This document shows, one piece after another, positions 2,176 to 63,334 of a stretch of 64,000 nt of DNA (position 1 is the first letter of the stretch; each line of letters opens with the position of its first letter). A model generated the notes under the pieces. That model worked only from the letters and a program-made list of their open reading frames with translations. It did not search any database and had not been told where the DNA came from. The DNA is from Rhodanobacteraceae bacterium (GTDB taxonomy: Bacteria; Pseudomonadota; Gammaproteobacteria; Xanthomonadales; SZUA-5). Location of the stretch: the NCBI GenBank assembly GCA_024234055.1, contig JACKOW010000005.1, positions 186,667 through 250,666 on the forward strand, in the 5' to 3' direction. Made by a program: the position numbers and the translations under genes.

Positions 2176-2325
2176 CGCCATTTCACCTCCAGCACTCCAA
2201 GGCGACGCAGATCTGCAATTCGGCGACGCATTGGCGCAAGTCCGGCCTTGGTCTCCATCGCCCCGCTGTTTACAGTGAGTCACGGCAGTGGGGGCATTGC
2301 CGGAACTCATCTGGGGAGTGCGAAC

Positions 2326-3678
2326 ATGAAGCGATGGCCGATAGTCGTGATACTCGCGTGGGCGCTGCTGCTGACCACGCCGCTGCACGCAGGCAAGATC
2401 TATCTGATGGGCGGCGGTTACGACGACGCCAATACCGATCTGTTCGTCAATGGCCTGCGCAAGGCCACCGGGCGTGACAGCAACTACACGCCCGATATCA
2501 ACAGCACCAGCAATTGCGGCAACAACTGGGCCACGACCGCCTGTCCGCGCATTGCCGTGGTGACCTCCAGCAAGGAGAGCTACGCGGTCGGCCTGGATGC
2601 TTTCGACAATGATCTGGACAACGGCGACGGCACGGTCAAGCGCGGCTACTACAATCTGTTTCAGACACACGGCTTCTCGCCCAGATTCATCACCGTGCAC
2701 ATCGACAATTTCGGCAGCCACGCCTACAGCGGCAACAGCGCCGGTGATGCCAACATCGCCATCGTCAACCAGGCCGACGTGGTCTGGTTTGCGGGAGGTG
2801 ATCAGGCCAGGGTTGCCCGCAGCTGGCTGAAGAACGACGGCAGCGACACGCCGCTGGCAGCGGCCTTGCGAGCGCGCTGGAATGCCAACAGTCCCGGCTT
2901 TGTGGTCGGCGGCGATTCCGCCGGCAACCATGCGATGAACGCCATGATGCATGGCAATGGCGTCAGTTACGGCTATCTGTATTACCGGGCCGATCTGCCC
3001 ACGCTGACGGTTCCGCAGTACGCCAACTTCGGTGATACCCGCGACGGCCTCACCGCCCTGCGCTACTTCGAGAATGGGGCCATGCTCAAGGGCTTGAGCT
3101 TCCTGCCGGCCACATTGCTCTCCGACACCCATTTCGACGCCCGCTCCGGACGCCTGGGACGGCTGCTGGCAGCCATGCGCGCGATGGGGAGACAGCAGGG
3201 CTTCGGCGTCGATGAGGATACCGGCCTGCTGGTCGACACCGTCACCCAGACGGCCAGGGTCTATGGCAGCGGTCCGGTGATCATCGCTGACCTCAGCGCC
3301 GCCACCTACCCCAGCGGCAGCTACTGGAGACTCAGCGGCGCGCGGGTCAGCCTGCTCACCGCGGGCGACAGTTACAACTACAGCAGCAAGTCGATCAACA
3401 GCAGCAAGTCCCTGATCGGCACGCGCTACTACAGCGGCTATTACGACTCGCCCGACATCTTCAGCGCCTTCGAGACCTCCAGGGTCCTGACCCGGGTCGT
3501 CGACCAGAGCGCCAGCTACAACCTGGGCGCCGCGCCCGCCCCGGACTATTCGACCGCGCCCTTCTATCCCGCGAATGCGCCGACCATCACCCTGCGATTC
3601 ACCCGCGACGGCAGCAGCAAGGGCTACTACTCGGCCGGTCGCTACACGGTGGTCAAGGCCAGGCTCGACATCTACTGA
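2326..3678 (+). CDS. secreted cyanophycinase-like (peptidase S51 / class-I glutamine-amidotransferase-like fold) protein with long C-terminal extension
   Basis: Internal ATG at 2326 gives the signal peptide MKRWPIVVILAWALLLTTPLHA. This is followed by KIYLMGGG, IAVVTSS and a GGDSAG nucleophile-elbow-like motif, as in cyanophycinase-type enzymes. The ORF-track start at 2248 looks like an upstream extension. Confidence 0.6.
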   Translation: MKRWPIVVILAWALLLTTPLHAGKIYLMGGGYDDANTDLFVNGLRKATGRDSNYTPDINSTSNCGNNWATTACPRIAVVTSSKESYAVGLDAFDNDLDNGDGTVKRGYYNLFQTHGFSPRFITVHIDNFGSHAYSGNSAGDANIAIVNQADVVWFAGGDQARVARSWLKNDGSDTPLAAALRARWNANSPGFVVGGDSAGNHAMNAMMHGNGVSYGYLYYRADLPTLTVPQYANFGDTRDGLTALRYFENGAMLKGLSFLPATLLSDTHFDARSGRLGRLLAAMRAMGRQQGFGVDEDTGLLVDTVTQTARVYGSGPVIIADLSAATYPSGSYWRLSGARVSLLTAGDSYNYSSKSINSSKSLIGTRYYSGYYDSPDIFSAFETSRVLTRVVDQSASYNLGAAPAPDYSTAPFYPANAPTITLRFTRDGSSKGYYSAGRYTVVKARLDIY

Positions 3679-3828: not shown

Positions 3829-6258
3829 GTGAACGATCTGCGATATGCAATGCGCCATCTGGCGCGTCAATTCGGGTTCACCCTGATCGTGGCCCTGACG
3901 CTGGGACTGGGCATCGGCCTGGTCACCACCCAGTACAGCCTGATCGACGGCATCCTGCTGCGCCCGCTGCCCTTTGCCGATGCCGAGCGACTGCTGCACC
4001 TCGGTCGCGGCGGTTCTGGAAATGGCTCGAACTGGCAGCCGCTGTCGCAGCGCGAATTCATGGCCCTGCGCGAGGGACAACAGAGCTTTGAAGAACTCGC
4101 TGCCTTCAGCTTCGATTTCTACAACCTCAGTCAGACCGGCACCGCGCCGCGGCGCCTGACTGGCCGCGCGGTCAGTCATGGCTTCTTTGCGGCACTGCGC
4201 ACGAATCCGGCCATCGGCCACGCTTTTGCTGCCGCCGACGAGCACAAGGGCGAGGAATTGAAGCTGCTGTTGGCCGACTCGATCTGGCGTGAGGAATTTG
4301 GCGCCGACCCGGCGGTGGCAGGCCGCCGGGTCAAGCTCAACGGCGAAATGGCGACCGTCATTGGCGTGATGCCGCCTCGTTTCCGCTTCCCCAATGGCGA
4401 AGACCTCTGGGTCAATCTGCGCCTGCCGGCCAGTGTCGAAGCAGCCGCGGCTGATCCGCATCTGCTCAATGTCGAGGTACTGGGCTTGTTGAAACCCGGG
4501 GTCAGCCGCGACCAGGCGCAGGCGGAAGGACAGACCATCCTGCAGCGCCTGCCTCCGCTCCCGGCCAGCGACGCCGGTGCACGCCAGGACGCGACACGCC
4601 TGGTGCTGCAATCCTTTCAATCCGCCTACAACGATCAGGGCACCATCACGCTGCTTGGAATCATGCTGGCAATGACACTGATCGTGCTGGCGCTGGCGTG
4701 CATCAATACCGCCAATCTGCTGTTCGTGCAGGCCAGCGATCGCCTGCGTGAACTGGCCGTGCGCAGCGCTCTCGGCGCCGGGCGCAGACGGCTGCTGCGG
4801 CAACTGCTGCTGGAGAGTCTGCTGCTGGCTGGCCTCGGCGCCGTGGTCGGGCTGCTGATCGCCAGCGTGGGCGTGCACCTGCTGCAAACCGAGATCAGCG
4901 CCCGGGTCAGCATGTCCTCCTGGATCGCCTTCGATTTGAACGGCCGAGTGCTGGCGGTGACCACCGTCATCGCCGTGCTCTCGGGCCTCGCCGCCGGACT
5001 GATCCCGGCACTGAGACTGGCTCGACTGGATCTGAATTCGGCCCTGCGCGCTGACGGCCGTGGCAGCGTCGGCGGTGAGCGTGCCTGGGCGGCGCGCTCG
5101 GTGGTCATCGGCCAGCTCGGCTTTGCCTGTGCGGCCATGATCCTCGCCAGCCTGCTGGCCTTGAGCGCACTGCGCAGCAGTCGCAGCACGCTGCCTTTCG
5201 ATCCCGATACCTTGCTGATCGGTCGCGTGGAACTGCAGGGCCTGCCCTATATCGAAGCCCGTCAGCGCAGCGACTTCTACCAGCAGTTGTTGAACCGCAT
5301 CCAGCAAGTTCCTGGCGTCAGTGCGGCCGCAGTCAGCAGCCGCGATCTGGTCAATCCCGGCGTCTACAGCCATTTCGAGATCGCCGGTCGTGAATCGGAT
5401 CGCCAGCAGGACCGCCCCGGCGCCTTTCTTGAGGTGATTTCTCGCGATTACTTCCAGGTGATCGATCGCCAGGCCATCAGCGGCCGCCTGTTCGGCAGCG
5501 AGGATGGTATCGACAGCGCACCGGTGGCCTTGGTCAACCAGAGTCTGGCCGAGCGCTTCTGGCCGGGCCGCAGCCCCATCGGCGAGCGTCTGCGCAGGGA
5601 CGAGGATGGTGCACCCTGGGCCACGGTGGTGGGTGTGGTGCCGGATCTCAACATCGAGGGGATCGGCAATCGCGCGCCCGCCGCAGGCTGGTATCTGTTG
5701 CAGGATCAGACCGGCTGGGGCTGGCTGGACCTGTTGGTCCGCGTGCAGGGCGATCCCGAAGCGATGATCGCCCCGGTGCGTGAAGCGGTTGCCGCCATTG
5801 ACCCGGACCAACCCATCCATACCATCACCACGTTGCGCGAGCGCACCCGTATCGGCCTGGCGGGCCTGCAGATCATTGGCAGCATGGCCGCCATCTTTGC
5901 CGTGGCCGCGCTGATCCTGGTGGCCGTGGGTGTCTACGGGGTCATGTCCTTCGCCGCACGCCGGCGCACCCGCGAGGTCGGGTTGCGAATGGCCCTCGGG
6001 GCCAGTGCCGGCTCGGTGACCACGCTGCTGGTCAAGCGCAATCTCGGGCGCACGCTGCTCGGCATCGGCAGTGGCCTGGTTCTGGGCTATGCGCTGGCCC
6101 TGCCGCTGCAACCGGTGCTGCCGGGCGTGAGCATCTTCGACCCCTGGCTGTATCTGGCGGTGGGCGCGGTCCTGGCGACGGCGGCACTGCTGGCCAGCTG
6201 GCTGCCCGCCTGGCGCGCCTCCGCCCGCGATCCGCTGGACGCGTTGCGGGCGGAGTGA
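3829..6258 (+). CDS. ABC-transporter permease, duplicated FtsX/MacB type (ADOP-like orphan permease)
   Basis: 809 aa. N-terminus MNDLRYAMRHLARQFGFTLIVALTLGLGIG is typical of the ADOP family. Two FtsX-like four-helix modules are separated by large periplasmic regions. No ATPase gene is adjacent. Confidence 0.85.
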   Translation: MNDLRYAMRHLARQFGFTLIVALTLGLGIGLVTTQYSLIDGILLRPLPFADAERLLHLGRGGSGNGSNWQPLSQREFMALREGQQSFEELAAFSFDFYNLSQTGTAPRRLTGRAVSHGFFAALRTNPAIGHAFAAADEHKGEELKLLLADSIWREEFGADPAVAGRRVKLNGEMATVIGVMPPRFRFPNGEDLWVNLRLPASVEAAAADPHLLNVEVLGLLKPGVSRDQAQAEGQTILQRLPPLPASDAGARQDATRLVLQSFQSAYNDQGTITLLGIMLAMTLIVLALACINTANLLFVQASDRLRELAVRSALGAGRRRLLRQLLLESLLLAGLGAVVGLLIASVGVHLLQTEISARVSMSSWIAFDLNGRVLAVTTVIAVLSGLAAGLIPALRLARLDLNSALRADGRGSVGGERAWAARSVVIGQLGFACAAMILASLLALSALRSSRSTLPFDPDTLLIGRVELQGLPYIEARQRSDFYQQLLNRIQQVPGVSAAAVSSRDLVNPGVYSHFEIAGRESDRQQDRPGAFLEVISRDYFQVIDRQAISGRLFGSEDGIDSAPVALVNQSLAERFWPGRSPIGERLRRDEDGAPWATVVGVVPDLNIEGIGNRAPAAGWYLLQDQTGWGWLDLLVRVQGDPEAMIAPVREAVAAIDPDQPIHTITTLRERTRIGLAGLQIIGSMAAIFAVAALILVAVGVYGVMSFAARRRTREVGLRMALGASAGSVTTLLVKRNLGRTLLGIGSGLVLGYALALPLQPVLPGVSIFDPWLYLAVGAVLATAALLASWLPAWRASARDPLDALRAE

Positions 6259-50701: not shown

Positions 50702-50899
50702 GGTCTTCCCCCGTCGTACGTTGAGTCAGTGGGCAGCAAAACTCGCTCGCCTCGACAGCCCTGACAGAGTCGCAGACTGCGCTCGCCGGGAACTGCCGGT
50801 CAATGAATTCTATCGCCAACTGTGAGAATCATCGTATCGGCATCGATTCTGTTATCGTTTTCAGCCTTCACCGCGACTGCATGGATGAAGCACCGAAAC

Positions 50900-51202
50900 A
50901 TGAGCGATGATCCCTTGCTGGACCTGAGGCCTGCGCACTTTGAAGCGTGGGTGGGCAAACAACTGCCGATCGACTTCGGCCCGGGCGCGATCTCTGCGAC
51001 CATCACTGAAGTGCGCGCCATCGGCGGCTACACATCCAGACCCGGCGGAGGATTCTCGGTGACGCTGACGGCCAATGTCGGTGCCCAACCACAGCAAGGC
51101 ACATTCAGCGTGCAGCTTCCAGAGTTTGGGAGCCTGGGTCTGTTCATGTCACCGCGAAAACGAATCGCCGATCTGACCGAGTACGAAATCGTCTTCAATT
51201 GA
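50900..51202 (+). CDS. small hypothetical protein (~100 aa) convergent with the tail-collar operon; resembles the family I recall as DUF6916
   Basis: MSDDPLLDLRPAHFEAWVGKQL...GGFSVTLTA...QGTFSVQLPEFGSLGLFMSP...TEYEIVFN. The ...QGT(Y/F)...LF(L/M)xP...YE(A/I)VFN ending matches a small family I remember next to tail-collar genes. Unverified. Confidence 0.5.
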   Translation: MSDDPLLDLRPAHFEAWVGKQLPIDFGPGAISATITEVRAIGGYTSRPGGGFSVTLTANVGAQPQQGTFSVQLPEFGSLGLFMSPRKRIADLTEYEIVFN

Positions 51203-51324: not shown

Positions 51325-51843
51325 TCAAGTCCGAGGCGGGAAAACGCCCTGGAGGGCGATGCAGAAGTACAACGTCAGGTAGGGCTGCATGTTGTTGTGC
51401 GGTTGGTCCCCGCCAGCCGGACTGAGTGCGAGATCCGACATCGCGGTGACGGGGCCTGGCGTCATGTACGGTGTGGCACCGATGGCTCTTGCGAAAGCCG
51501 TGCCTGCCGGAGTCTGGGCGTCACCGGGTACCACCTGCGCCATCAGCCCGTGACCATGCGCAGGCATTTCGCTTTCCAGCAGCGATACCGTTTGGCTGCC
51601 GCCCGTCTCACCAAGATCATGCAAGGACAGTCCAGGACCCTGGCCCCAGAACATGGGAGCCCGTCCCTGCAGATCTGGCAATGCGAAATTGCTCTTGCCA
51701 TTGCCGCCGTAGGTGGTGCCAAGCAGCGAGAACAGCGCCGTGTTTTGACTCAGCGGCAGCAGCTGACCGTTGCACCATGCCCAGCCCCTGGGGGCGAAGT
51801 TGAAGGGAAAAATCCGAATCTCTGCAACAAATGGATCGGCCAT
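51325..51843 (-). CDS. stand-alone phage-tail-collar-domain protein, paralogue C
   Basis: MADPFVAEIRIFPFNFAPRGWAWCNGQLLPLSQNTALFSLLGTTYGG..FALPDLQGR; MPAHGHG (HxH); GGDQPHNNMQPYLTL. RBS GAGGG is fused to the upstream stop (TGAGGGCACCATCATG). Confidence 0.85.
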   Translation of the reverse strand: MADPFVAEIRIFPFNFAPRGWAWCNGQLLPLSQNTALFSLLGTTYGGNGKSNFALPDLQGRAPMFWGQGPGLSLHDLGETGGSQTVSLLESEMPAHGHGLMAQVVPGDAQTPAGTAFARAIGATPYMTPGPVTAMSDLALSPAGGDQPHNNMQPYLTLYFCIALQGVFPPRT

Positions 51844-51853
51844 GATGGTGCCC

Positions 51854-52357
51854 TCAGGTTGGACTCGGGAAGATGCCGTACAGCGAGATAATGAAACTCA
51901 CGCAGAGATAAGGCTGCATGTTGTTGTGCGGCTGACTCCCGCCCACGGAACTGATCGAGGTTGCGGCCATGGGTGCGGACGGCGGATTCGACTGGTAGAA
52001 ATCGAAACTCGTCGTCTGCGCAGGAACCTTTCCGGTAGGACCGGTATCGGTTGCCAGTCCGATCGAACCCAACAGGGGATGGGTGTGCGCGGCCATCTGT
52101 GCACTGGTCAGCGTGACTTCCTCCACGCCCCCACGTTCGGCAAGCACGAAGCCATTGCCGAAATGCAGCGGCACCCGGCCACGCAGATCGGGCAAGCCAA
52201 AAGTATTCTGACCGTCGCCACCGTAGGTGGTGCCGATCAGATTGAACAGCGTTTCGTTCTCGGAAATGGGCAGTAATTGCCCGGCGCAGAACATCCATCC
52301 GGCGGGCGCAAAATTGCCGGCGAACATCCGAATTTCCCCCACATAGGGCTGTGCCAT
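51854..52357 (-). CDS. stand-alone phage-tail-collar-domain protein, paralogue B
   Basis: MAQPYVGEIRMFAGNFAPAGWMFCAGQLLPISENETLFNLIGTTYGG..FGLPDLRGR; MAAHTHP; GGSQPHNNMQPYLCV. RBS AAGGAG is fused to the upstream stop (TGAAGGAGATAGTCATG). Confidence 0.85.
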   Translation of the reverse strand: MAQPYVGEIRMFAGNFAPAGWMFCAGQLLPISENETLFNLIGTTYGGDGQNTFGLPDLRGRVPLHFGNGFVLAERGGVEEVTLTSAQMAAHTHPLLGSIGLATDTGPTGKVPAQTTSFDFYQSNPPSAPMAATSISSVGGSQPHNNMQPYLCVSFIISLYGIFPSPT

Positions 52358-52368
52358 GACTATCTCCT

Positions 52369-52869
52369 TCAGGTCGGGGACGGAAAGATGCCCTGCAGGG
52401 CGATCGAGAAGTTCAGCGTCAGGAAAGGCATCATGTTCTGATGCGCCTGGCTGCCGCCCGCATTGGCCACTGTGCCCGCATTCATCGGCTGCAACTGGTC
52501 GGCGTTGCGATAGGTCGGAAGATTGCTCGGTGCCAGCATATTGTTGGCTGGTATCAGCTGAGTGCCGGCGGTGCTGGTGGCATTCAACACGTGGGTATGC
52601 GTCGGCATCTCGGCGATGCTCAGCGTATGCGCCTGTTCGCCGCCTCGCTCACCCAGCGTAAACGAGGATCCCACCTCGATGGGCACCCGCCCACGCAGAT
52701 CAGGCAGGGCGAAGTTCACCCGGCCATCCCCGCCGAAGGTGGTGCCCAGCAGTGAGAACAGGGCCTGATTCTGGTTGATCGGTAACAACTGACCGTTGCA
52801 CAACGCCCAACCCTTGGGCGCGAATCCGAAACTGAACACGCGAATTTCGGACAAAAAAGGCTCAGCCAT
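52369..52869 (-). CDS. stand-alone phage-tail-collar-domain protein, paralogue A
   Basis: MAEPFLSEIRVFSFGFAPKGWALCNGQLLPINQNQALFSLLGTTFGG..FALPDLRGR; MPTHTHV; GGSQAHQNMMPFLTL. AGGAG RBS. 73 nt downstream of the giant gene. Confidence 0.85.
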   Translation of the reverse strand: MAEPFLSEIRVFSFGFAPKGWALCNGQLLPINQNQALFSLLGTTFGGDGRVNFALPDLRGRVPIEVGSSFTLGERGGEQAHTLSIAEMPTHTHVLNATSTAGTQLIPANNMLAPSNLPTYRNADQLQPMNAGTVANAGGSQAHQNMMPFLTLNFSIALQGIFPSPT

Positions 52870-52942: not shown

Positions 52943-55900
52943 TCAGGGCGGCGTGATCAGCGGCCCGGGTATCAGGCTGCAGCCAGCAGAACCGCTGGCG
53001 CTGCCGGTATTGGCATTCTCTGGTGACGTCAGAACCGCCGTGGCGTTGGCATTGGCCGGCGGCGGATCGACGACCTGGCAATCACCGGCCCCACCCTCGT
53101 GGGCGATCAGGAAGGTGGACTGCAAATCGAAGCTCGCCCCGACCGGCACGACATTGTTGCGGAAGTCGTTCCGCGCGCGGTTTCCACCGCCAGCCCCTGT
53201 GATGGCTTGGCTGATGATCGCCGCCAGCGGGAATCCCGAGGTGTCATTGGGGTTGACGTTGCTGTTGAGCACCTGCAGATCGAGCCCGCTGGTTGAAGTA
53301 AACGACGCGCCCGCATCCCGACTGGTTGCGTCGATACCGCGTCCGTTGGGACACTGACGCAGCAGCGTGTTGTCGACAATCACAGCGGAGGACGCGTCGC
53401 GGTTGTGCACCAGCCGGATGCAGTTGCCGATGGCCGAACCCGAGCTAGCCACCGCCTGATCGCCCACGTCCACATTCAGAATTCGACCGCGGTAGGTACC
53501 CACAGCCGTAGCGGCGCCCGGCACGCCGTAGTTGCCATTGAAGCCATGCGAGTTCATGCCGGAAATCCGGCCCGCCGCACCGTTCTGGTTGCGGACGATG
53601 TACTGCATGGAAGCCGGTGCCACCGCCGAAAGGTCGTAGGCGATCTGCGCATTGCGGGTGATGTTGCCATCGAAGATCAGATTGGCCACGCTGGAGCTTC
53701 CGCCGCTGGCCAGCACCTGGACCGGAATCACTCGAATCCCGGTGATGGTATTGCTGGATACGGTACCTCCGGTCAGCGCCGCCGAGCCCGAGAGATCGAT
53801 CAGCAGACCCGAGTTACCGACGGCCGGATCGTTGTTGGTCAATGTGGAGCCACTCATGTTGAAGCTCAACGAGCCGGACGTGTTGGCGATGCGGACGACG
53901 TCGTAGTAGTTCTGATTCAAGGTAGTGTTGGTGATGCTCCAGGCACCGGAAGCCTGGGTCACGTCGATACCACTCTCGTTGACTGCGTTTCCGTTGTTGG
54001 AGACCACCGAAGTGCTCAGAGCGAATCCGTTGATGCCGCTGCCGGCGATACCGTCGTTGCCGCCGCCGCTGACGAACAGCCGCGTGGCGCTGAAGCCCTG
54101 AGTATTGGTCAAGGACACGCCGGCGCTGGTGCTGTTCTGGATAGCGCCGCCGGTACAGGTGCCGGCGCTGGAACACGCGCCACCGTTGCCGGTGATGACC
54201 AGGCCGCCGCTGGCACCCGTGCTGTTCAGCACAATGCCGCTGACCGCACCGTTGCTGCTGGCCGACTGGAAAGTGACGTTGCTGGCCGAGATCGTGGTGT
54301 TAGCAATGTTGATTGCAGCGCCCGTGGTGCTGGTCACGGAGTTACCGCTGCCCTGCACGCTGACCGTGCCGCCGCCGGTGGCGCTGAAACCGGTGCCGGT
54401 GGTGGTAGCGATCGCCAGACCGCCATTGATGAAGTTGATGGTGGCGCCGGTATTGGAGGTCAACGTCACCGCCGCGGAGGCGCCGGTACTCAGCGCCTTG
54501 CTGGCGCCACTGAAACTCACGCTGCCGGCATTTCGATTGAGCACGTCCACACCCGTACAAGTGCCAGTACAGCTCAGATTGCCGCTGAGCGTGACGGTAC
54601 CGCCGGCGGCGCCGCTGATCTGGACCAGCTTGCCCGCATTGGCCTTGGTGATTGTTCCGCCGTAGCTCGTGGTGCCGAGGCTGCCTTGCCCCAGGAAGGC
54701 CGTCCCGGTTGGCGCAGTGATGCTGCCGCCAGCGATGGCGACGGTGCCGGTGAGGTTGTTCAGGTTGACACCCTGGGTCGGGCTGTTGGTCGAACTGGCG
54801 CTGGTCAGCGTCAGGCTGAGAGCGCTGCCCGTGGAATTCAGCGCGGCCCCGCCGGTTGCATTCAGGCTGCCGGCGGTGGTGGTCACGGTGCCGGCGGAAT
54901 TGTCAACGGTCAGGGCTGTGCCTGCGCCTGTGGTCACACTCAGACTGCCCAGGTTGATCGGCGCTGCGTTGGCGTTGAGATTGACACCGGCTCCGGCGCT
55001 GGACTTGTTGACGGTGACACCACCGGTGAAGGTGGCACTGCCGCCCGCCGGCGTGTTGACGATGCTGATCGCGGTGCCGTTGACGTTGCCGATGTTCACC
55101 GCTCCGGTTATCGACCAGGTGCCGCTGACAGCGTCGAGCCCGATGCCCTGCAGGTTGCCGCTGGCGACGTCGACGTCGATGAAGTTACCGTTGAGCGTAC
55201 CGTTGGTCAGACCCAGGGCGCGGCCATCGCCGTTCAGCGTCAGCTCCGCCACGGTCAGGGTGCCGAATGCGGTGCCTGAGATCTTCGTGCCTGTCGCAAT
55301 GGTATCGCCGACGATGAATCCGCGCAGGGTGTTGCCGGTGCCCAGGCTGAGGCAGTTCGCGACAGCGCAGGTGATGGTCGGCGCGTTGCCTCCCAGGGCC
55401 GGGAATGCGCTGCCGGCGATCGGGGTGATGCCGCTGATCGTGGCCAGATCGCTGACCGATCCCTGACCGATCAACCGTTCCCCCGCCTCCAGCAAGATGC
55501 CACCGGTGTACGGATTGGCATCGAAAGCCAGGAAGATCGTGTCATTGGACGAGTCTACTGCGGCTGCGGCGCCGAGGGTCTGGAACGGACGCGCCTGAGT
55601 ACCAATGCCGCCCACTGCCGCAGCAGCGTCGACGAACCAGACCAGTTCGGTGTTCTGCAGCGTGAACACGACATTGGCGGTGTCACCGCCGGTCACGGTG
55701 TAGCAGAAGGTCCGCGTGGCGTTGGCCACTGCCGCTGGCGGCTCGTAACTGAAGCTGCCATTGGCATTCAGCGTCAATCGACCATTGGCAGCACCGGCAT
55801 CAAGCTGGGCGCCGGGCGCAGTGCCGGTGCAGGCCGGGGCGAAACCGAATCCAGTAATCGTGCCGGCACCAAGGACATCGTTGGCAACCACACCACCGCC

Positions 55901-58900
55901 CTGCGGGCTGGCAACACCGATGCCCAGCGTCAGATGAGGCGTGACCGTGTAGGCATCGTCCAGCGCCACCGCGGCATAGGTGAAGCTGGCCGTGAAATCC
56001 GCAGCCAGGTTGTCGGGCGGATCAATGGCGTCGGCGTCGGTAATGCCCGCGGCGCGCACGGTCAGCGTACAGGTGGCACCTGCGATCGCACTGTCGAGCG
56101 GATTCAGTACCACGCTCGATGCCGGACTCGCGGTGACCACGGTGAAGTTGACCGGCGAGGTCGCCGGGCATTCCAGGTCAAAGCTGGTGTTGGCGGCATT
56201 GGCCGTGGTGTCGAAATTGACCGACTCACTGAAGTTGATGGTGATGTTGCTGGTCGGATCGACCGACGTCGCGGAGTTGGCTGGCGTAGTCGAGGTGACG
56301 CTTGGCGCCGCATCGACACTGAAAGTCCGCACGAAATTCGCCACCATATTGTTTGGCGGATCGTTGAGGTCGGTGTCGCTGACCTGGGCCGCAACCACCG
56401 TCAGCGAGCAAGCGGCGCCCTGCGGCAAGCCGCCAGTGGGGGTCAGCGTGATCGTGTTGGTGTTCGTTGCCGGCAAGGCCGGCACGCTGCTGAAGGGCAC
56501 GCCCGCACCGCAATTCAGGGTGAAGGCACTCGCCGTCAGGTCGACGTTCTCGCTGAAGTTGACGGTCAACAGCTGAGTACTGGGCACCACTGCGGCCTCA
56601 GCGGGGGTGGCAGTCACCACCGTCGGCGCTGCATCCGTGGTAAAGCTCCAGGTGAAGTTGCTCACCATCTGGTCGGGCGGATCGATGGCGTCGGCGTCGG
56701 TCACCAGCGTGGCCACCACCGTGCCGTTGCAGGTGGCCCCTTCGGGCAGATTGACACTGGGCGTCAGCGTGATGGTGTTGGTGTTGCTCGCCGGCAGGCC
56801 ACCGCTGAAGGTCACGGGGGTACCGCAGTTCAGTGTCACGCCTCCGGCAGCAACATTGACCGCCTCGCTGAAATTCACGGTGATTGTGGTGTTGGTGGCG
56901 AGGTTGCTGGCGCCGTTGCCTGGCAGCACAGAGCTGACGCTCGGTGCCGAATCCACCGTGAAGGTCGACACGAAGTTGGCCGCCATATTGTCTGGCGGAT
57001 CGATCAGATCGCTGTCGGTGATGTTGGCGGCGAGCACGGTCAGGGTGCAGGTGGCGCCACTCGGCAGCGGCGGCGCATAGGTCGGCGTCAGGCTGGGTAC
57101 GTTTGTGCCGGTGGTACCGCCAGTGATCAGGTTGGCACCACCACAGGTGAGCGTGACCGATCCAGCCGTGGCATCAACATTTTCGGTGAAGACCACGTTC
57201 AGCGGGGCGTTGCTTGCCACCGTCGCCCCATTGGCGGGTGACACTGACTGAACGGCCGGCGGATTGTCATTGACCGACGTGAAGCTCAGCACGAAGTTGG
57301 CGGCCATCGTATCCGGCGGATCGGCCGCATCGACATCGCTGATGCCGGCGGCCAAAGCGGTCACCGTGCACAGCGTGTTGATTGGCAGCAGCGAGGTCGG
57401 CGTCAATGTCGCGGTGGCGGTCCCGCTGCCGGCGACAGTGAAGGTGACCGGGGCGCCGCAGTTGTAGGTGAAGCTCGGCACACCGAAATTCACCGGCTCG
57501 CTGAATGTGAAGCTGACTACGCCAGCCAGCGGCACACTTGTGGCGCCAGTGGTTGGGTTGCTGCTGCTCACGCTGGGCGCCGCGTCAACGCTGAAGTTGC
57601 GAACGGTGTCAGCAATCGGATTGTTTGGCGGATCGATGGCATCAACGTCGGCGATTTGCGCAGCCACGGCAGTGGCGGTGCAGTTGCTGCCTTCCGGCAG
57701 TGCGGCGCTTGGGGTAAAGGTCAGCGTCGCCGTGCCAGATCCGCCGATGGCGCCCGCGATCGGCGCACCGCAGTTCAGGGTGATCGCGCCACCGAGATTG
57801 TTGACCGGCTCATCGAAACTGAAGCTCACAATCTGACTGGTGGCCACCACGGCAGCGGCCGCCGGGACGGCGCTGACAAAGGTCGGGGCTGCGTCGACGC
57901 TGAAGTTGACGGTGACGTTCGCCGGGAGATTGTCGGGCGGATCGAAACCATCGACGTCAGTGATGTTGGCCGCGATCAGGGTTGCGGTGCAGGCGGCGCC
58001 GTTGGGCAGGGCCGCTGCGGGCGTAAAGGTGAGGGTGCTGGTGCCCGACCCACTCGGGGTCACGGCAATGGGGCCGCCGCAGTCGAGCGTGAATCCACCC
58101 ATGCCGAAATTGACCGGCTCGCTGAACACGGCGCTGAATGTGGCGTTGTTGGCGACGGTAGCGCCGGCGGCTGGCGTCGAACTGACAAACGCGGGTGCAG
58201 CGTCAACGGTGAAGGTGGCCGTGAAGTCGGCAGCCGGATTGTTCGGCGGGTCAATGAGATCTACGTCACTGACGCTGGCGGCCGGCACGAACAAGGTGCA
58301 GCTACCCGAAGGCAGCGGTGCGGCGTAGGTCAGATTCAGACTGGTGACTGCCGATCCGGTGCTGCCACCGGTGATCAGATTGGGGCCGCCGCAGGTCAGC
58401 GTGATGCCCGCGACCACATTCACCGATTCGCTGAAGTTGACGGTGACGGCGACGTTGTTGGCAGTGGTGGCACCGTTCGCCGGCACGCTGGTCACCACCG
58501 GTGCCGCATCGACGTTGACGGTGATGATGTCGGTGTCGGTCAACACTCCGCCCAGACCAGTATTACCCTGGTCATTGGTGATCACGGTAATGCTGCGCGC
58601 TGCCGAGGTGCCCGGCACTGGTGTGTAGGTCAGGCTGCCGCCGGGGCCATTCAGCGCCGCGTTGAGCGCCGTCAGGGTACCCGTGGCGATCACCAGGTCG
58701 CTGCCGTTGCCGGTCAGACTGGTCAATGCGCCGCCAGGATTGGCCAGCGTCAGCGTGCCGTTGGCCGGCGCGCCGGTGACCAGACTGATTTGCAGGATAC
58801 CGGCGCCGGCGTCGATGTCGGCGATGCTGATGGCATTGGTATTGGCAGTGCTGAACACCACCGGCACGGTGTCACCGGTGCTCTGCGCGGCAGGCACGGT

Positions 58901-61342
58901 GTTGACCGGCGGATCGTTGACCGCAAGCACAGTGATGGTGAAGCTCTGCGGCGCGCTGGTGTCGATGCCGCCGTTGGCGGTGCCGCCGTTGTCCATCAGG
59001 TTCAATGTGACCGTGGCGACGCCGTTGGCATTCGCCGCCGGCGTGTAGGTCAGCACGCCGGCAGGACTCACCGTCGGTGCCGTGCTGAACAACGCCGGGT
59101 TGGTGTTCCCGGTGATGTTGAAGGTCAGGGTCTGGCCTGCCTCATCCGGCGGGCCGGCACTGATCGTCGTGGCCCAGGGATTCACCGTCTGCGGACCGGA
59201 ATCCTCGTTCACGCTCTGGTTCGGGCCGGCGGTGAAACTCGGCGCATCGTTGACCGCGGTCACGGTGATCGTGAAGCTCTGCGGCGGCGAGGTGTCGAAG
59301 CCACCATTGGCGGTGCCACCATCATCCATCAGGTTCAGCGTGATCGTGGCCGTGCCATTGGCATTGGCGGCTGGCGTGTAGCTGAGCACACCGGTGGGGC
59401 TGACCGTGGGGCCGGCACTGAACAGCGCCGGATTGGTATTGCCGGTGATGTTGAAGCTCAGCGCCTGCACGACTTCCGGATCGCCATCATCGATACCGGT
59501 GGCCCAAGGACTGACCGTTTGCGGACCGGCGTCTTCGAGCACGGTCTGGTTGGGACCGGCCGTGAACACCGGCACATCATTGACCGAGGTCACGGTGATG
59601 GTGAAGGTCTGATCGGCACTGACATCGATGCCGCCGTTGGCGGTGCCGCCATCATCACGGGCACGCACGGAGATCGTGGCCACTCCATTGGCGTTCGCCG
59701 CCGGGGTGTAGGTCAGCGTGCCGGCTGCATCCACTGCCGGAGACGCGCTGAACAAGGCCGCATTGGTGTTGCCGGTGATCTCGAAGGTGACTGTCTGGCC
59801 GGATTCGTCCGGCGGTCCGGGACTGATCGCCGTCGCCCACGGGTTCACGGTCTGTGGGCCGGCGTCCTCCAGAACGATCTGGCTCGGGCCGGCGACAAAG
59901 CTCGGCGCATCGTTGACCGCGGTCACCGTGATCGTGAAGCTCTGCGGCGCGCTGGTGTCGATGCCACCATTGGCGGTGCCGCCATCGTCCATCAGGTTCA
60001 GCGTGATCGTAGCCGTCCCGTTGGCATTGGCCGCTGGTGTGTAGCTGAGCGCGCCGGTCGGGCTGACCGTGGGGCCGGCACTGAACAGCGCAGGATTGGT
60101 ATTGCCGGTGATGTTGAAGCTCAGCGCCTGCACGACTTCCGGATCGCCATCGTCGACGCCGGTGGCCCAGGGATTGACTGTCTGCGGACCTGCATCCTCG
60201 AGCACGGTCTGGTTGGGACCGGCCGTGAACACCGGCACATCATTGACTGGCGTGATGTTGATCGTGACCGTCGCCGGCGACGCACTCACCACCTGACCAT
60301 CGAAGGCGTTGTAGGTGAAGGTGTCCGGACCATTGGCGTTGGCGTTCGGCGTGTAGCTGAAACTGCCATTGGGGTTCAGCGTCAACACGCCCTTGGTCGG
60401 TCCGGCCACCAACTGCGCGGTGATCGGATCCCCATCGGGATCGGAGTCGTTACCGAGTACACCAGGGGCTGCCACATTGAGTACCGTGTCCTCCAGCGTG
60501 CTGTAGCTGTCATTGACAGCCACCGGCGGACGGTTCTCGGCATCGACGACATCGATACGGAAGTGCAGATTCGGGCGCACATCGACGCCGAAGGCGGCGA
60601 CGATGTCGGTTCCGCTCAAGGGCGGCACGGAGTCACCGATGGCGTCGGTGCCGATGGGCGCATCGCCGGCCCAATCTCCAACCTGCCCGTCAGCGATATG
60701 GGTGACCACCGCCCAGGCAGCCACTCCCAACGACAGGAAGGCGCCAACCATCAGCGTCTGCGCCAGCAGCCGATTTCGCCGCAGGCTGCGCACTGCCAAC
60801 GTGGCAAGGGCCAGAGCCAGGAGCAGACCACCGAAGAAACCGAGTGTGGGAATCAATGCCGGGCTGCCGATCACCATCGGCAGCCCGTTGGCGGTGCCGT
60901 CGACCGTGTACAGCACATCAACGGATCCGCTGGCGCTCTGGGCGCCGATGCCGATCCGGACCTGCGGCTCGACGCCGGGCAGCAGGGAACGGGCGATGGA
61001 CAGCTCGATCACGTCGGCGGCGGCGCCTCCCCCCAAGGGCAGGCCGTTGTTCAGGCCCACCGGGTAGTTGGCAGACAGCGCGCTGCCCGGCGCGAAGCTA
61101 CCGGCCACGCAAGGAGACAGGGTTCGGGCAGTGACGACGGGCGGTGAACCGCTGACCGTGGCCGTGAGCCGATAGTCCGCGCCCAGGAAGGTCTGCCCGC
61201 CGCCAGAGGCGGTACAGCCGGTGGTGTTGCGCAGATCACTATCGATGTAGACGTGATAGCTGTAGGTCTGAGCGGGTGCCGCAAGGGCGATGAACTGCAG
61301 CACTGCTGCGACGATCACACACCCAAAACTACGCATGCTCAT
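52943..61342 (-). CDS. giant (~2,800 aa) Sec-dependent surface protein: N-terminal domain + internal IPTL-like TM hairpin, cadherin-like/VNDxP repeats, eight Big_5 Ig-like repeats, C-terminal ~850-aa parallel beta-helix
   Basis: A single uninterrupted ORF. Signal peptide MRSFGCVIVAAVLQFIALAAPAQT. PALIPTLGFFGGLLLALALATLAVRSLRRNR at aa ~170-200. PPVAVNDSY...DSDPDGD; four ~111-aa VND(V/A)P(V/S)F units; eight ~105-aa AAPxVxSxxPAxGAT...FSExV...(L)xCG...C(T)...DxDxxDPP(N/D)N units; PbH1-like repeats (ITNTTLNQNYYDVVRIANTSGS, STLTNND). Start 61342 or 61336 preferred over 61369. Confidence 0.9.
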   Translation of the reverse strand: MSMRSFGCVIVAAVLQFIALAAPAQTYSYHVYIDSDLRNTTGCTASGGGQTFLGADYRLTATVSGSPPVVTARTLSPCVAGSFAPGSALSANYPVGLNNGLPLGGGAAADVIELSIARSLLPGVEPQVRIGIGAQSASGSVDVLYTVDGTANGLPMVIGSPALIPTLGFFGGLLLALALATLAVRSLRRNRLLAQTLMVGAFLSLGVAAWAVVTHIADGQVGDWAGDAPIGTDAIGDSVPPLSGTDIVAAFGVDVRPNLHFRIDVVDAENRPPVAVNDSYSTLEDTVLNVAAPGVLGNDSDPDGDPITAQLVAGPTKGVLTLNPNGSFSYTPNANANGPDTFTYNAFDGQVVSASPATVTINITPVNDVPVFTAGPNQTVLEDAGPQTVNPWATGVDDGDPEVVQALSFNITGNTNPALFSAGPTVSPTGALSYTPAANANGTATITLNLMDDGGTANGGIDTSAPQSFTITVTAVNDAPSFVAGPSQIVLEDAGPQTVNPWATAISPGPPDESGQTVTFEITGNTNAALFSASPAVDAAGTLTYTPAANANGVATISVRARDDGGTANGGIDVSADQTFTITVTSVNDVPVFTAGPNQTVLEDAGPQTVSPWATGIDDGDPEVVQALSFNITGNTNPALFSAGPTVSPTGVLSYTPAANANGTATITLNLMDDGGTANGGFDTSPPQSFTITVTAVNDAPSFTAGPNQSVNEDSGPQTVNPWATTISAGPPDEAGQTLTFNITGNTNPALFSTAPTVSPAGVLTYTPAANANGVATVTLNLMDNGGTANGGIDTSAPQSFTITVLAVNDPPVNTVPAAQSTGDTVPVVFSTANTNAISIADIDAGAGILQISLVTGAPANGTLTLANPGGALTSLTGNGSDLVIATGTLTALNAALNGPGGSLTYTPVPGTSAARSITVITNDQGNTGLGGVLTDTDIITVNVDAAPVVTSVPANGATTANNVAVTVNFSESVNVVAGITLTCGGPNLITGGSTGSAVTSLNLTYAAPLPSGSCTLFVPAASVSDVDLIDPPNNPAADFTATFTVDAAPAFVSSTPAAGATVANNATFSAVFSEPVNFGMGGFTLDCGGPIAVTPSGSGTSTLTFTPAAALPNGAACTATLIAANITDVDGFDPPDNLPANVTVNFSVDAAPTFVSAVPAAAAVVATSQIVSFSFDEPVNNLGGAITLNCGAPIAGAIGGSGTATLTFTPSAALPEGSNCTATAVAAQIADVDAIDPPNNPIADTVRNFSVDAAPSVSSSNPTTGATSVPLAGVVSFTFSEPVNFGVPSFTYNCGAPVTFTVAGSGTATATLTPTSLLPINTLCTVTALAAGISDVDAADPPDTMAANFVLSFTSVNDNPPAVQSVSPANGATVASNAPLNVVFTENVDATAGSVTLTCGGANLITGGTTGTNVPSLTPTYAPPLPSGATCTLTVLAANITDSDLIDPPDNMAANFVSTFTVDSAPSVSSVLPGNGASNLATNTTITVNFSEAVNVAAGGVTLNCGTPVTFSGGLPASNTNTITLTPSVNLPEGATCNGTVVATLVTDADAIDPPDQMVSNFTWSFTTDAAPTVVTATPAEAAVVPSTQLLTVNFSENVDLTASAFTLNCGAGVPFSSVPALPATNTNTITLTPTGGLPQGAACSLTVVAAQVSDTDLNDPPNNMVANFVRTFSVDAAPSVTSTTPANSATSVDPTSNITINFSESVNFDTTANAANTSFDLECPATSPVNFTVVTASPASSVVLNPLDSAIAGATCTLTVRAAGITDADAIDPPDNLAADFTASFTYAAVALDDAYTVTPHLTLGIGVASPQGGGVVANDVLGAGTITGFGFAPACTGTAPGAQLDAGAANGRLTLNANGSFSYEPPAAVANATRTFCYTVTGGDTANVVFTLQNTELVWFVDAAAAVGGIGTQARPFQTLGAAAAVDSSNDTIFLAFDANPYTGGILLEAGERLIGQGSVSDLATISGITPIAGSAFPALGGNAPTITCAVANCLSLGTGNTLRGFIVGDTIATGTKISGTAFGTLTVAELTLNGDGRALGLTNGTLNGNFIDVDVASGNLQGIGLDAVSGTWSITGAVNIGNVNGTAISIVNTPAGGSATFTGGVTVNKSSAGAGVNLNANAAPINLGSLSVTTGAGTALTVDNSAGTVTTTAGSLNATGGAALNSTGSALSLTLTSASSTNSPTQGVNLNNLTGTVAIAGGSITAPTGTAFLGQGSLGTTSYGGTITKANAGKLVQISGAAGGTVTLSGNLSCTGTCTGVDVLNRNAGSVSFSGASKALSTGASAAVTLTSNTGATINFINGGLAIATTTGTGFSATGGGTVSVQGSGNSVTSTTGAAINIANTTISASNVTFQSASSNGAVSGIVLNSTGASGGLVITGNGGACSSAGTCTGGAIQNSTSAGVSLTNTQGFSATRLFVSGGGNDGIAGSGINGFALSTSVVSNNGNAVNESGIDVTQASGAWSITNTTLNQNYYDVVRIANTSGSLSFNMSGSTLTNNDPAVGNSGLLIDLSGSAALTGGTVSSNTITGIRVIPVQVLASGGSSSVANLIFDGNITRNAQIAYDLSAVAPASMQYIVRNQNGAAGRISGMNSHGFNGNYGVPGAATAVGTYRGRILNVDVGDQAVASSGSAIGNCIRLVHNRDASSAVIVDNTLLRQCPNGRGIDATSRDAGASFTSTSGLDLQVLNSNVNPNDTSGFPLAAIISQAITGAGGGNRARNDFRNNVVPVGASFDLQSTFLIAHEGGAGDCQVVDPPPANANATAVLTSPENANTGSASGSAGCSLIPGPLITPP

Positions 61343-61480
61343 GGAATCCCCGTTGCATTTGGTCGTCATTTCCAGCCACGCAGAATGCTCTCAACAAGCC
61401 CTGAATTTCAATCATTCATGAGACTCAATCGGATCAGTGGCGAGCTTCTTGGGTGCTATGTCGCGAGGGCGACAAATGTC

Positions 61481-62309: not shown

Positions 62310-63227
62310 ATGAGCCAAGACCTGCCCAAATACATCTGGTTCAATGGCAAGCTGATTCCCTGGGCCGAGGCCACCGTGCATGTGATGTCGCATGCGCTGC
62401 ACTATGGCTCGTCGGTGTTCGAGGGCATCCGCTCGTACATGACCCCCAAGGGCCCGGCGATCTTCCGCTACACCGATCACATGAAGCGCCTGTACGCCTC
62501 GGCCCGCATGTATGACCTGGAAATCCAGCATGATCTGGCCACGCTGATGGCCGCGGGCCGTGAGGTCGTGACCCGCAATGAACTCACCAATGCCTACCTG
62601 CGACCGCTGGCCTGGCGCGGCTCGGGTGGTTTCGGACTGGGTGCCGACAATCCGACCGGCTGCATGATTGCCGCCTGGGTGTGGGGTCCGTATCTGGGCG
62701 CGCAGGCCATCCACGAAGGCATCGATGCCTGCATTTCCAGCTGGCGCCGAGTGGCCCCGGCCACACTGCCGGCCAGTGCCAAGGCCGGTGGCAACTATCT
62801 GTCCAGCATCCTGGTGTCGCGTGAAGCCAAGCGCCTCGGTTTCCACGAAGGCATCGCGCTCACGGTCGATGGCTATCTGGCCGAAGGTGCCGGCGAGAAC
62901 CTGTTCCTGGTCTTCGGCAAGACCATCTACACGCCGCCCATTGCCGCGTCGATCCTGCACGGCATCACCCGCAGCACCGCCATTACCATCGCTCAGGAAC
63001 TCGGTTTCGAGGTCAAGGAAGAGAATCTGCCGCGCGAGATGATCTATCTGGCAGACGAGGTCTTCATGACCGGCACCGCCGCCGAGATCACCCCGATCCG
63101 CAGTGTCGATCGCAAGACCATCGGCGACGGCAAGCCGGGCCCCACCACCCGTGCCGTGCAACAGCGATTCTTCGGCCTGTTCGACGGCAGCGTGGAAGAC
63201 ACGCACGGCTGGCTGGAGTACGTGTAA
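62310..63227 (+). CDS. ilvE: branched-chain-amino-acid aminotransferase
   Basis: IWFNGKLIPWAEATVHVMSHALHYGSSVFEGIRSY...AKAGGNYLSS...EGAGENLF...PPIAASILHGITR is the canonical class-IV aminotransferase IlvE. 305 aa. Confidence 0.93.
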   Translation: MSQDLPKYIWFNGKLIPWAEATVHVMSHALHYGSSVFEGIRSYMTPKGPAIFRYTDHMKRLYASARMYDLEIQHDLATLMAAGREVVTRNELTNAYLRPLAWRGSGGFGLGADNPTGCMIAAWVWGPYLGAQAIHEGIDACISSWRRVAPATLPASAKAGGNYLSSILVSREAKRLGFHEGIALTVDGYLAEGAGENLFLVFGKTIYTPPIAASILHGITRSTAITIAQELGFEVKEENLPREMIYLADEVFMTGTAAEITPIRSVDRKTIGDGKPGPTTRAVQQRFFGLFDGSVEDTHGWLEYV

Positions 63228-63334
63228 GGGACGGGACTCGGGACTCGGGACTCGGGACTCGGGACTCGGGACTCGGGACTCGGGACTCGGGACTCGGGAC
63301 TCGGGACTCGGGACTCGGGACTCGGGACTCGGGA
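63228..63334. repeat. heptanucleotide microsatellite (GGGACTC)~14
   Basis: Counted directly: GGGAC, then 14 perfect GGGACTC units (63233..63330), then GGGA. It begins 1 nt after the ilvE TAA stop. Confidence 0.97.

Follow-up and report, generated by a model that had tools for sequence, protein, structure and literature searches.

A conserved internal hairpin resembling an IPTL-type sorting signal in a family of giant adhesin-like bacterial proteins

The giant secreted repeat protein encoded on the minus strand of contig JACKOW010000005.1 of a Rhodanobacteraceae bacterium (52943..61369; all positions refer to the analysed stretch of 64,000 nucleotides with a G+C content of 64.7%, here called the window) carries close to its N-terminus a segment that resembles two export signals: a unit built like an IPTL-type C-terminal sorting tag and, directly behind it, a stretch built like a second signal peptide. 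As judged from sequence comparisons, this segment, which we call the hairpin, is a conserved and un-annotated internal sorting-signal element of a giant adhesin-like family, and it fails the cutoffs of both the IPTL-CTERM and the NF033207 models. The gene is one open reading frame (ORF), each element of the hairpin is conserved, the similarity to the hidden Markov models of sorting signals depends on the direction of the sequence, and the end of the second stretch follows the -3/-1 rule of signal peptidase sites. The single gene probably gives rise to two products, a small N-terminal domain and an adhesin body of 2,588 residues. Our preferred interpretation, which we put forward tentatively, is that of a two-cargo precursor in which signal peptidase cleaves behind Ala220 and an exosortase may cleave as well, at the IPTL motif; from these observations we infer the topology, the two cleavages and the enzymes involved.

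The ORF list gives a protein of 2,808 amino acids, and this longest ORF defines the residue numbers used here; the start annotated at NCBI is M12 at position 61336, which results in 2,797 amino acids. From M12 on, the exact protein is present in NCBI as an 'Ig-like domain-containing protein' of a Lysobacterales metagenome-assembled genome (MAG). The original prediction had proposed a signal peptide and a small domain ahead of the hairpin, and both are found: the N-terminal Sec signal peptide MRSFGCVIVAAVLQFIALAAPA (61271..61336, minus strand as for all elements of this gene), with a predicted cleavage at A-P-A|Q, i. e. MRSFGCVIVAAVLQFIALAAPA|Q, precedes an N-terminal domain (N-domain) of about 132 amino acids that has two invariant cysteines and is predicted to form a beta sandwich (60875..61270). 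The translation of 60704-60856 is LIPTLGFFGGLLLALALATLAVRSLRRNRLLAQTLMVGAFLSLGVAAWAVV, corresponding to residues 172-222. It starts with the IPTL motif (residues 173-176, 60842..60853; family consensus [IV]-P-x-L-[GST]), which overlaps helix 1, TLGFFGGLLLALALATLAV (residues 175-193, 60791..60847), the predicted stop-transfer helix of the sorting-signal-like unit. Then follow the basic cluster RSLRRNR (residues 194-200, 60770..60790), predicted to form a short loop in the cytoplasm and at the same time to provide the second signal with its n-region, and the second hydrophobic stretch LLAQTLMVGAFLSLGVAAWA (residues 201-220, 60710..60769), a signal-peptide-like re-initiation segment that ends with AWA|VV. 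By the -3/-1 rule, a signal peptidase I site is predicted at A-W-A|V (residues 218-221, 60707..60718). The conserved post-hairpin segment (residues 221-280, 60530..60709), which contains DGQVGDW and the beta hairpin DIVAAFGVD..NLHFRIDVVD, would become the N-terminal end of the mature adhesin body if the predicted cut occurs. Behind the second hydrophobic stretch the same frame runs on for 2,588 residues. The hairpin motif is unique among all six frames of the window.

The body of the protein is made up of repeats. The tandem-95 repeat model NF012211 scores 127.6 bits on the giant protein and thus exceeds its cutoff of 90, and the Pfam families Big_5 (PF13205, 206.9 bits), Big_9 (92.5 bits) and Cadherin_5 (PF17892, 85.3 bits) all reach their cutoffs. 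At the DNA level, a tandem array with a period of 333 bp (4.1 copies, 71% match) covers 58905-60247 within the gene; this array reflects the cadherin-like or tandem-95 repeats of the protein. In addition, an Arg/Gly-rich ORF of 1,163 amino acids lies antisense to the giant gene (57656-61147, plus strand); we take it to be a mirror ORF typical of the coding strand of high-GC DNA and not a gene.

The relatives of the protein consistently have one gene. A search of metagenomes with the first 280 amino acids yielded eight fragments with 53-73% identity, and those that span the hairpin junction are uninterrupted and in a single frame. A genome scan with one genome per species identified 34 loci, one per genome, in Lysobacterales and in MAGs of Competibacteraceae, Wenzhouxiangella and Ahniellaceae. 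Among the Lysobacterales, the carriers include Tahibacter aquaticus (DSM 21667), T. caeni, T. harae and Tahibacter sp. UC22_41, the latter with a complete genome (NZ_CP170554.1), as well as Dokdonella immobilis (CGMCC 1.7659), Rudaea, Pseudolysobacter and Chiayiivirga. In all 34 loci a single frame runs from the N-domain through the hairpin into the repeats, and in none of them is there a stop at the junction; excluding ORFs that are cut by a contig end or truncated early, the ORFs of 24 loci encode 1,855-3,512 amino acids. RefSeq lists single genes in Tahibacter and Dokdonella isolates (e. g. WP_386070136.1, WP_175498116.1, WP_257385095.1 and WP_255915265.1). At the level of codons, the 56 hairpin codons differ from those of the two closest genomes by 21-23 synonymous and 6-7 non-synonymous codon differences, with similar values for the flanking domains; the hairpin codons are under purifying selection. 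A few MAG orthologues are interrupted: two are truncated to 651 (L004:9458-11413) and 390 amino acids (L029:978-2150), respectively, and a third is split into the adjacent ODU30761.1 (1,539 amino acids) and ODU30762.1 (999 amino acids). All these breaks are located downstream of the hairpin, and they resemble frameshifts introduced by the assembly of a repetitive gene.

For the window itself, the original prediction had noted that neither a stop codon nor a ribosome-binding site precedes M207. This holds: the frame is open from 60530 to 61369, and the 30 nucleotides before the ATG at 60751 contain nothing that resembles a Shine-Dalgarno sequence. The same prediction had considered that a small gene and an adhesin gene were fused by loss of a stop, or that a stop was missed in sequencing. 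As a recent event, this has to be rejected in view of the 34 single-frame loci, the junction-reaching fragments and the single RefSeq genes; moreover, M207 as an internal start is not conserved among the homologues. The question whether orthologues have one gene or two is answered in favour of one, and the Arg/Lys cluster is kept in them. From its conservation, we regard the hairpin as a genuine part of one giant gene, neither the result of a missed stop nor of a recent fusion.

How well is each element of the hairpin conserved? The counts given here refer to an alignment of 37 homologues (alignment A3). In the motif, the proline is found in 37/37, Ile or Val at the first position in 36, Leu in 31, and Gly, Ser or Thr at the last position in 36; many distant members have IPLLG, IPFLT or VPTLS. 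Helix 1 is 18-22 amino acids long in every homologue, and the loop always contains two to five Arg or Lys residues. Thus, the tripartite layout of motif, helix and basic cluster, in the window IPTL, a helix of 19 amino acids and RSLRRNR, is conserved in all 37 homologues, and so is the signal-peptide-like second helix behind it, just as it had been read from the window sequence alone. Counted from the last Arg, the second stretch comprises 14-21 amino acids, with 19 homologues having exactly 14. It ends with Ala (27) or Val (10) at position -3 and with Ala at -1 in all 37, and, in the sequences looked through by eye, a Gly or Ser is usually present five to six residues ahead of the predicted cleavage site (uncounted). 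Residues 194-220 accordingly have the layout of a Sec signal peptide with a basic n-region, a hydrophobic h-region and small residues at -3 and -1. Positions +1 to +3 are usually A-N-F, followed by the invariant D-G..D-W. Within the hairpin, only the motif proline and the -1 alanine are invariant, and these would be the two positions where cutting is expected.

The models of known sorting signals recognize the first half of the hairpin. The best NCBIfam match of the window copy is NF033207, 'midcut-by-XrtH protein', which aligns with profile positions 31-88 of 175. We assembled a panel of 23 non-redundant hairpins, and NF033207 matches every one of them (best E-value 2e-8), below its cutoff; the highest score, 27.4 bits, is reached by the homologue L010. 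The IPTL-CTERM model TIGR04174 matches 10 of the 23 at E<=1 (best E-value 2.9e-6), and both TIGR04174 and its Pfam counterpart PF18203 align with the window copy end to end (profile 1-26 of 27). The PEP-CTERM, LPXTG, GlyGly-CTERM and MYXO-CTERM models give weak matches to one or two hairpins each. In a control with reversed sequences, the NF033207 and IPTL models matched none of three. A match of NF058595, 'invert_tail', to 12 of the 23 hairpins was discarded as compositional because a reversed sequence matches as well. On its own, the first half with the motif, the helix and the Arg cluster scores 20.9-22.6 bits with NF033207 and 12.5 bits with TIGR04174, and the second half alone matches no model. 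The first half of L010 (VPTLGWWG...), the one homologue that was scored individually, alone reaches 20.4 bits with TIGR04174, only 0.1 bit short of the cutoff of 20.5. Given the model scores and the reversed-sequence controls, we consider the first helix unit to be a divergent IPTL-type sorting signal; the signature of this class that had been seen in the window stands with respect to its tripartite design and falls short with respect to the curated cutoffs.

Since NF033207 describes a family with an IPTL-type signal in the middle of the protein, a curated precedent for an internal signal exists. The name of this model also ties the IPTL signal class to exosortase H (XrtH). A second model, TIGR04177, is 'exosortase H, IPTLxxWG-CTERM-specific'. 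The link between XrtH and the IPTL class as used here stems from the names of these models. The original prediction had still called the enzyme that acts on IPTL signals unknown; this is outdated, as NCBIfam links the signal class to exosortase H.

Several searches for further relatives of the hairpin returned little. A profile search with the hairpin in a set of 5.8 billion proteins found two uninformative fragments and no midcut-by-XrtH or IPTL-CTERM protein. In a search of representative proteins, four of the 150 matches listed align from the N-terminus (P0109, P0141, P0156 and P0167); these 150 matches are swamped by unrelated giant repeat proteins because the query alignment (A4) included a cadherin-like repeat. 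Stand-alone N-domain proteins that end in IPTL-CTERM were not found in searches of limited sensitivity, a tblastn search with the hairpin had no match among plasmids, and a regular-expression search of the window and of about 560 kb of flanking sequence revealed no classical IPTL-CTERM protein with the signal at its C-terminus.

How might such a protein be processed? We suggest that the hairpin acts as a two-helix inner-membrane unit that presents two export signals back to back. The N-terminal signal peptide would first export the domain of about 132 amino acids. The IPTL-type unit is laid out like the C-terminal sorting tags of the exosortase H type, with its [IV]-P-x-L-[GST] motif, a helix that spans 18-22 residues and a cluster of Arg residues; it would then halt translocation and leave the Arg cluster inside the cell. 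There, the cluster may serve as the n-region that, together with the second stretch, re-engages the Sec machinery and translocates the adhesin body of 2,588 amino acids. Signal peptidase I would cut after Ala220 (A-W-A|V) and free the body on the periplasmic side. Finally, the N-domain would either stay on the remnant of the hairpin or be released or transferred at IPxL, provided that an exosortase H-type enzyme is encoded in the genome. This order of events is the logic that is implied by the family name 'midcut-by-XrtH'.

A number of observations weigh against this two-cargo precursor. First, the window copy remains below the cutoffs of the curated models, with 12.6 bits versus 20.5 for TIGR04174, 13.2 versus 20.8 for PF18203 and 18.7-23.9 versus 45 for NF033207, and the second half of the hairpin contributes only about 3-5 bits to the latter score. 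Second, the Thr of IPTL is retained in just 13 of the 37 homologues, and the clade of the window protein has a second stretch of 20 residues, which is sufficient for a stable membrane helix. Third, no exosortase family is represented among the membrane proteins of the window, which include a MATE transporter, TauE, an ADOP permease, a KefB/C-like antiporter and a DASS transporter, and a hydrophobicity screen of the 34 loci and 10 kb on either side revealed 26 multi-pass flank ORFs, none of them with the exosortase domain PF09721. Finally, the passage of a periplasmic protein of 2,588 amino acids over the outer membrane is not accounted for.

Some of these observations suit a rival reading, in which signal peptidase alone cuts the protein: helix 1 would be a plain stop-transfer anchor, its likeness to IPTL signals a relic or a convergence of a proline helix cap, a helix and arginines, and the N-domain would stay an inner-membrane protein on which no exosortase acts. 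The missing exosortase in the window and within 10 kb of the 34 loci, the scores of the window copy under the cutoffs of all sorting-signal models, the variable motif Thr and the single copy per genome, as opposed to the many substrates typical of exosortase systems, all agree with this reading. We nevertheless consider it rather doubtful, as NF033207 matches all 23 hairpins in a direction-specific manner, the motif proline is invariant with nearly invariant Ile/Val, Leu and Gly/Ser/Thr around it, and one homologue comes within 0.1 bit of the IPTL-CTERM cutoff. A second reading, that of a permanent helical-hairpin anchor with both sites uncut that keeps N-domain and giant body attached to the inner membrane on its periplasmic side, had been raised beside the polyprotein from the start, and both have survived the analysis. 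The length of helix 1 (18-22 amino acids), the 20 residues of the second helix in the clade of the window protein, the positive-inside loop that suits the topology, and the helical hairpin in a compact predicted structure (see below) speak for an anchor. Conversely, the second stretch extends just 14 residues past the last Arg in 19/37 homologues, the invariant -1 Ala and the Ala or Val at -3 would be hard to explain in a plain helix, and the body with at least 14 Ig-like domains and about 1,000 repeat-rich amino acids is, by a rough estimate from domain counts, longer than the periplasm is wide. We favour the polyprotein because of the -1 and -3 residues and the short h-region of 14 residues, and a permanent anchor seems unlikely to us. 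That we are dealing with an artefact or with two genes, i. e. that a stop after RRNR was recently lost or missed or that translation restarts at M207, is highly improbable: apart from an a priori concern and the two truncated MAG orthologues, whose breaks are downstream of the hairpin, nothing speaks for it, whereas the absence of a junction stop in 34 loci, the concurring isolate genomes, the non-conserved Met207 without a ribosome-binding site and the predominance of synonymous changes in the hairpin codons all argue against it.

The two cargoes of the proposed precursor are conserved together: the N-domain and the post-hairpin segment are present in 34/34 loci. Among the 37 homologues, the Ala-Gln at the end of the N-terminal signal is nearly invariant, the invariant columns of the N-domain are G, C, G, C, G, D, V and E, and those of the post-hairpin segment are D, G, D, W, D, D and R. 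The two invariant cysteines of the N-domain are compatible with an extracytoplasmic location. An AlphaFold2 (AF2) model of residues 33-300, built from 22 sequences, has a mean predicted local distance difference test score (pLDDT) of 80.9 and a predicted template modelling score (pTM) of 0.75. In this model, the N-domain is a beta sandwich (pLDDT about 85-97), and the two helices form a helical hairpin (model residues 143-163 and 168-189). The beta hairpin at protein residues 254-276 has pLDDT values of 86-89 in the presence of the N-domain and of 73-84 without it. It is tempting to speculate that the N-domain and this first beta hairpin of the body (about 254-276) are parts of a single fold that bridges the membrane hairpin, so that after both cuts an exosortase-type reaction would fix the N-domain to the envelope, and the N-domain would hold the adhesin of 2,588 amino acids non-covalently by strand complementation. 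Such a split-domain anchor made from one precursor is a long shot. The N-domain has no relatives in Pfam or NCBIfam; in the PDB, none was found by profile, and the best Foldseek hit (E-value 0.02, TM-score <0.2) is not significant. A circular permutation, in which the post-hairpin segment followed by the N-domain would give a CBM9-like fold, was considered and dropped, the permuted construct matching no Pfam family.

The two-cargo precursor can be compared with several known systems. Like the NF033207 proteins, it has an internal IPTL-type motif, a helix and a basic cluster, followed by a further hydrophobic stretch and more protein. In contrast to them, the family studied here scores 18.7-27.4 bits with a cutoff of 45 and matches only roughly one third of the profile (175 positions); the domains on either side of the signal are not related, the window protein has 2,808 amino acids, and no XrtH gene is located near the loci. 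For members of NF033207, XrtH is expected to be encoded nearby. With the IPTL-CTERM signals (TIGR04174 and PF18203) the hairpin shares the design of motif, helix and Arg cluster. These tags, however, are C-terminal by definition, whereas here 2,588 amino acids follow in frame and a stop after the basic cluster is present in 0/34 loci; moreover, the window copy scores below the cutoff, and the hairpin family conserves neither the Thr nor the xxWG downstream of it. An IPTL-CTERM protein is known as the surface-layer protein of the diderm bacterium Methylomirabilis lanthanidiphila (PMC8671808). In tripartite sorting systems in general, a signature motif exposed at the outer face is followed by a single helix and by basic residues in the cytoplasm, and a membrane protease cuts the tag; reviews describe such tags as C-terminal (PMC11980579; Haft preprint). 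The PEP-CTERM/exosortase, LPXTG/sortase, PGF-CTERM/archaeosortase, GlyGly-CTERM/rhombosortase and MYXO-CTERM/myxosortase pairs follow the same logic, but all of them use C-terminal tags.

A further analogy for the junction is offered by the internal signal sequences of membrane-inserted polyproteins such as those of flaviviruses. In these, a stop-transfer helix is connected by a short loop in the cytoplasm to a signal-like helix that has a small-x-small site; the host signal peptidase cuts, and the downstream product is released across the membrane. These are viral or eukaryotic systems, and we know of no characterised bacterial giant adhesin with an internal signal of the polyprotein type. 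The LapA-type adhesins resemble the window protein in that they have a small N-terminal domain, and attachment would be controlled by proteolysis between this domain and the body. They differ in being secreted by a type I system via a C-terminal signal and in the periplasmic protease that cuts them at a di-alanine site; moreover, LapA has neither a membrane hairpin nor an N-terminal Sec signal, and it shares no sequence similarity with the giant protein. In our literature search, we came across neither an account of an internal exosortase-type signal nor one of 'midcut-by-XrtH', and the name of the NCBIfam model is the sole precedent for an internal signal that we found.

The giant gene has conserved neighbours. 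Directly downstream of it and separate from the hairpin, three tandem Phage Tail Collar genes (PF07484, E-values 1e-27 to 1e-29) are encoded on the minus strand (52369-52869, 51854-52357 and 51325-51843); the proteins have about 166-172 amino acids and each a weak Gp10_C-like tail. In 21 of the 34 loci, two or three such genes (41 copies) follow the giant gene, and they look like its operon partners. Facing them is a small DUF6916 gene (50822-51202, plus strand, E-value 3e-14). Upstream of the giant gene lies an ilvE-like gene (62310-63227 in the window), and right after the latter the heptanucleotide CGGGACT is perfectly repeated in tandem 14.7 times (63232-63334), which appears as SPESRVP repeats in spurious ORFs. 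Elsewhere in the window, a cyanophycinase-like protein (2248-3678, plus strand) scores 99.7 bits, under the cutoff of 126.6, and is adjoined by an ADOP-family duplicated permease (3829-6258, plus strand, 728 bits).

In public records, the isolate genes carry only the RefSeq names 'Ig-like domain-containing protein' or 'tandem-95 repeat protein', and because of this annotation the hairpin is invisible to users. As the family is present in culturable Tahibacter and Dokdonella strains, the idea of a two-cargo precursor is directly testable. If it is true, C-terminal tripartite tags can also serve as processing sites in the middle of a protein, and one precursor would supply the cell with two surface products.

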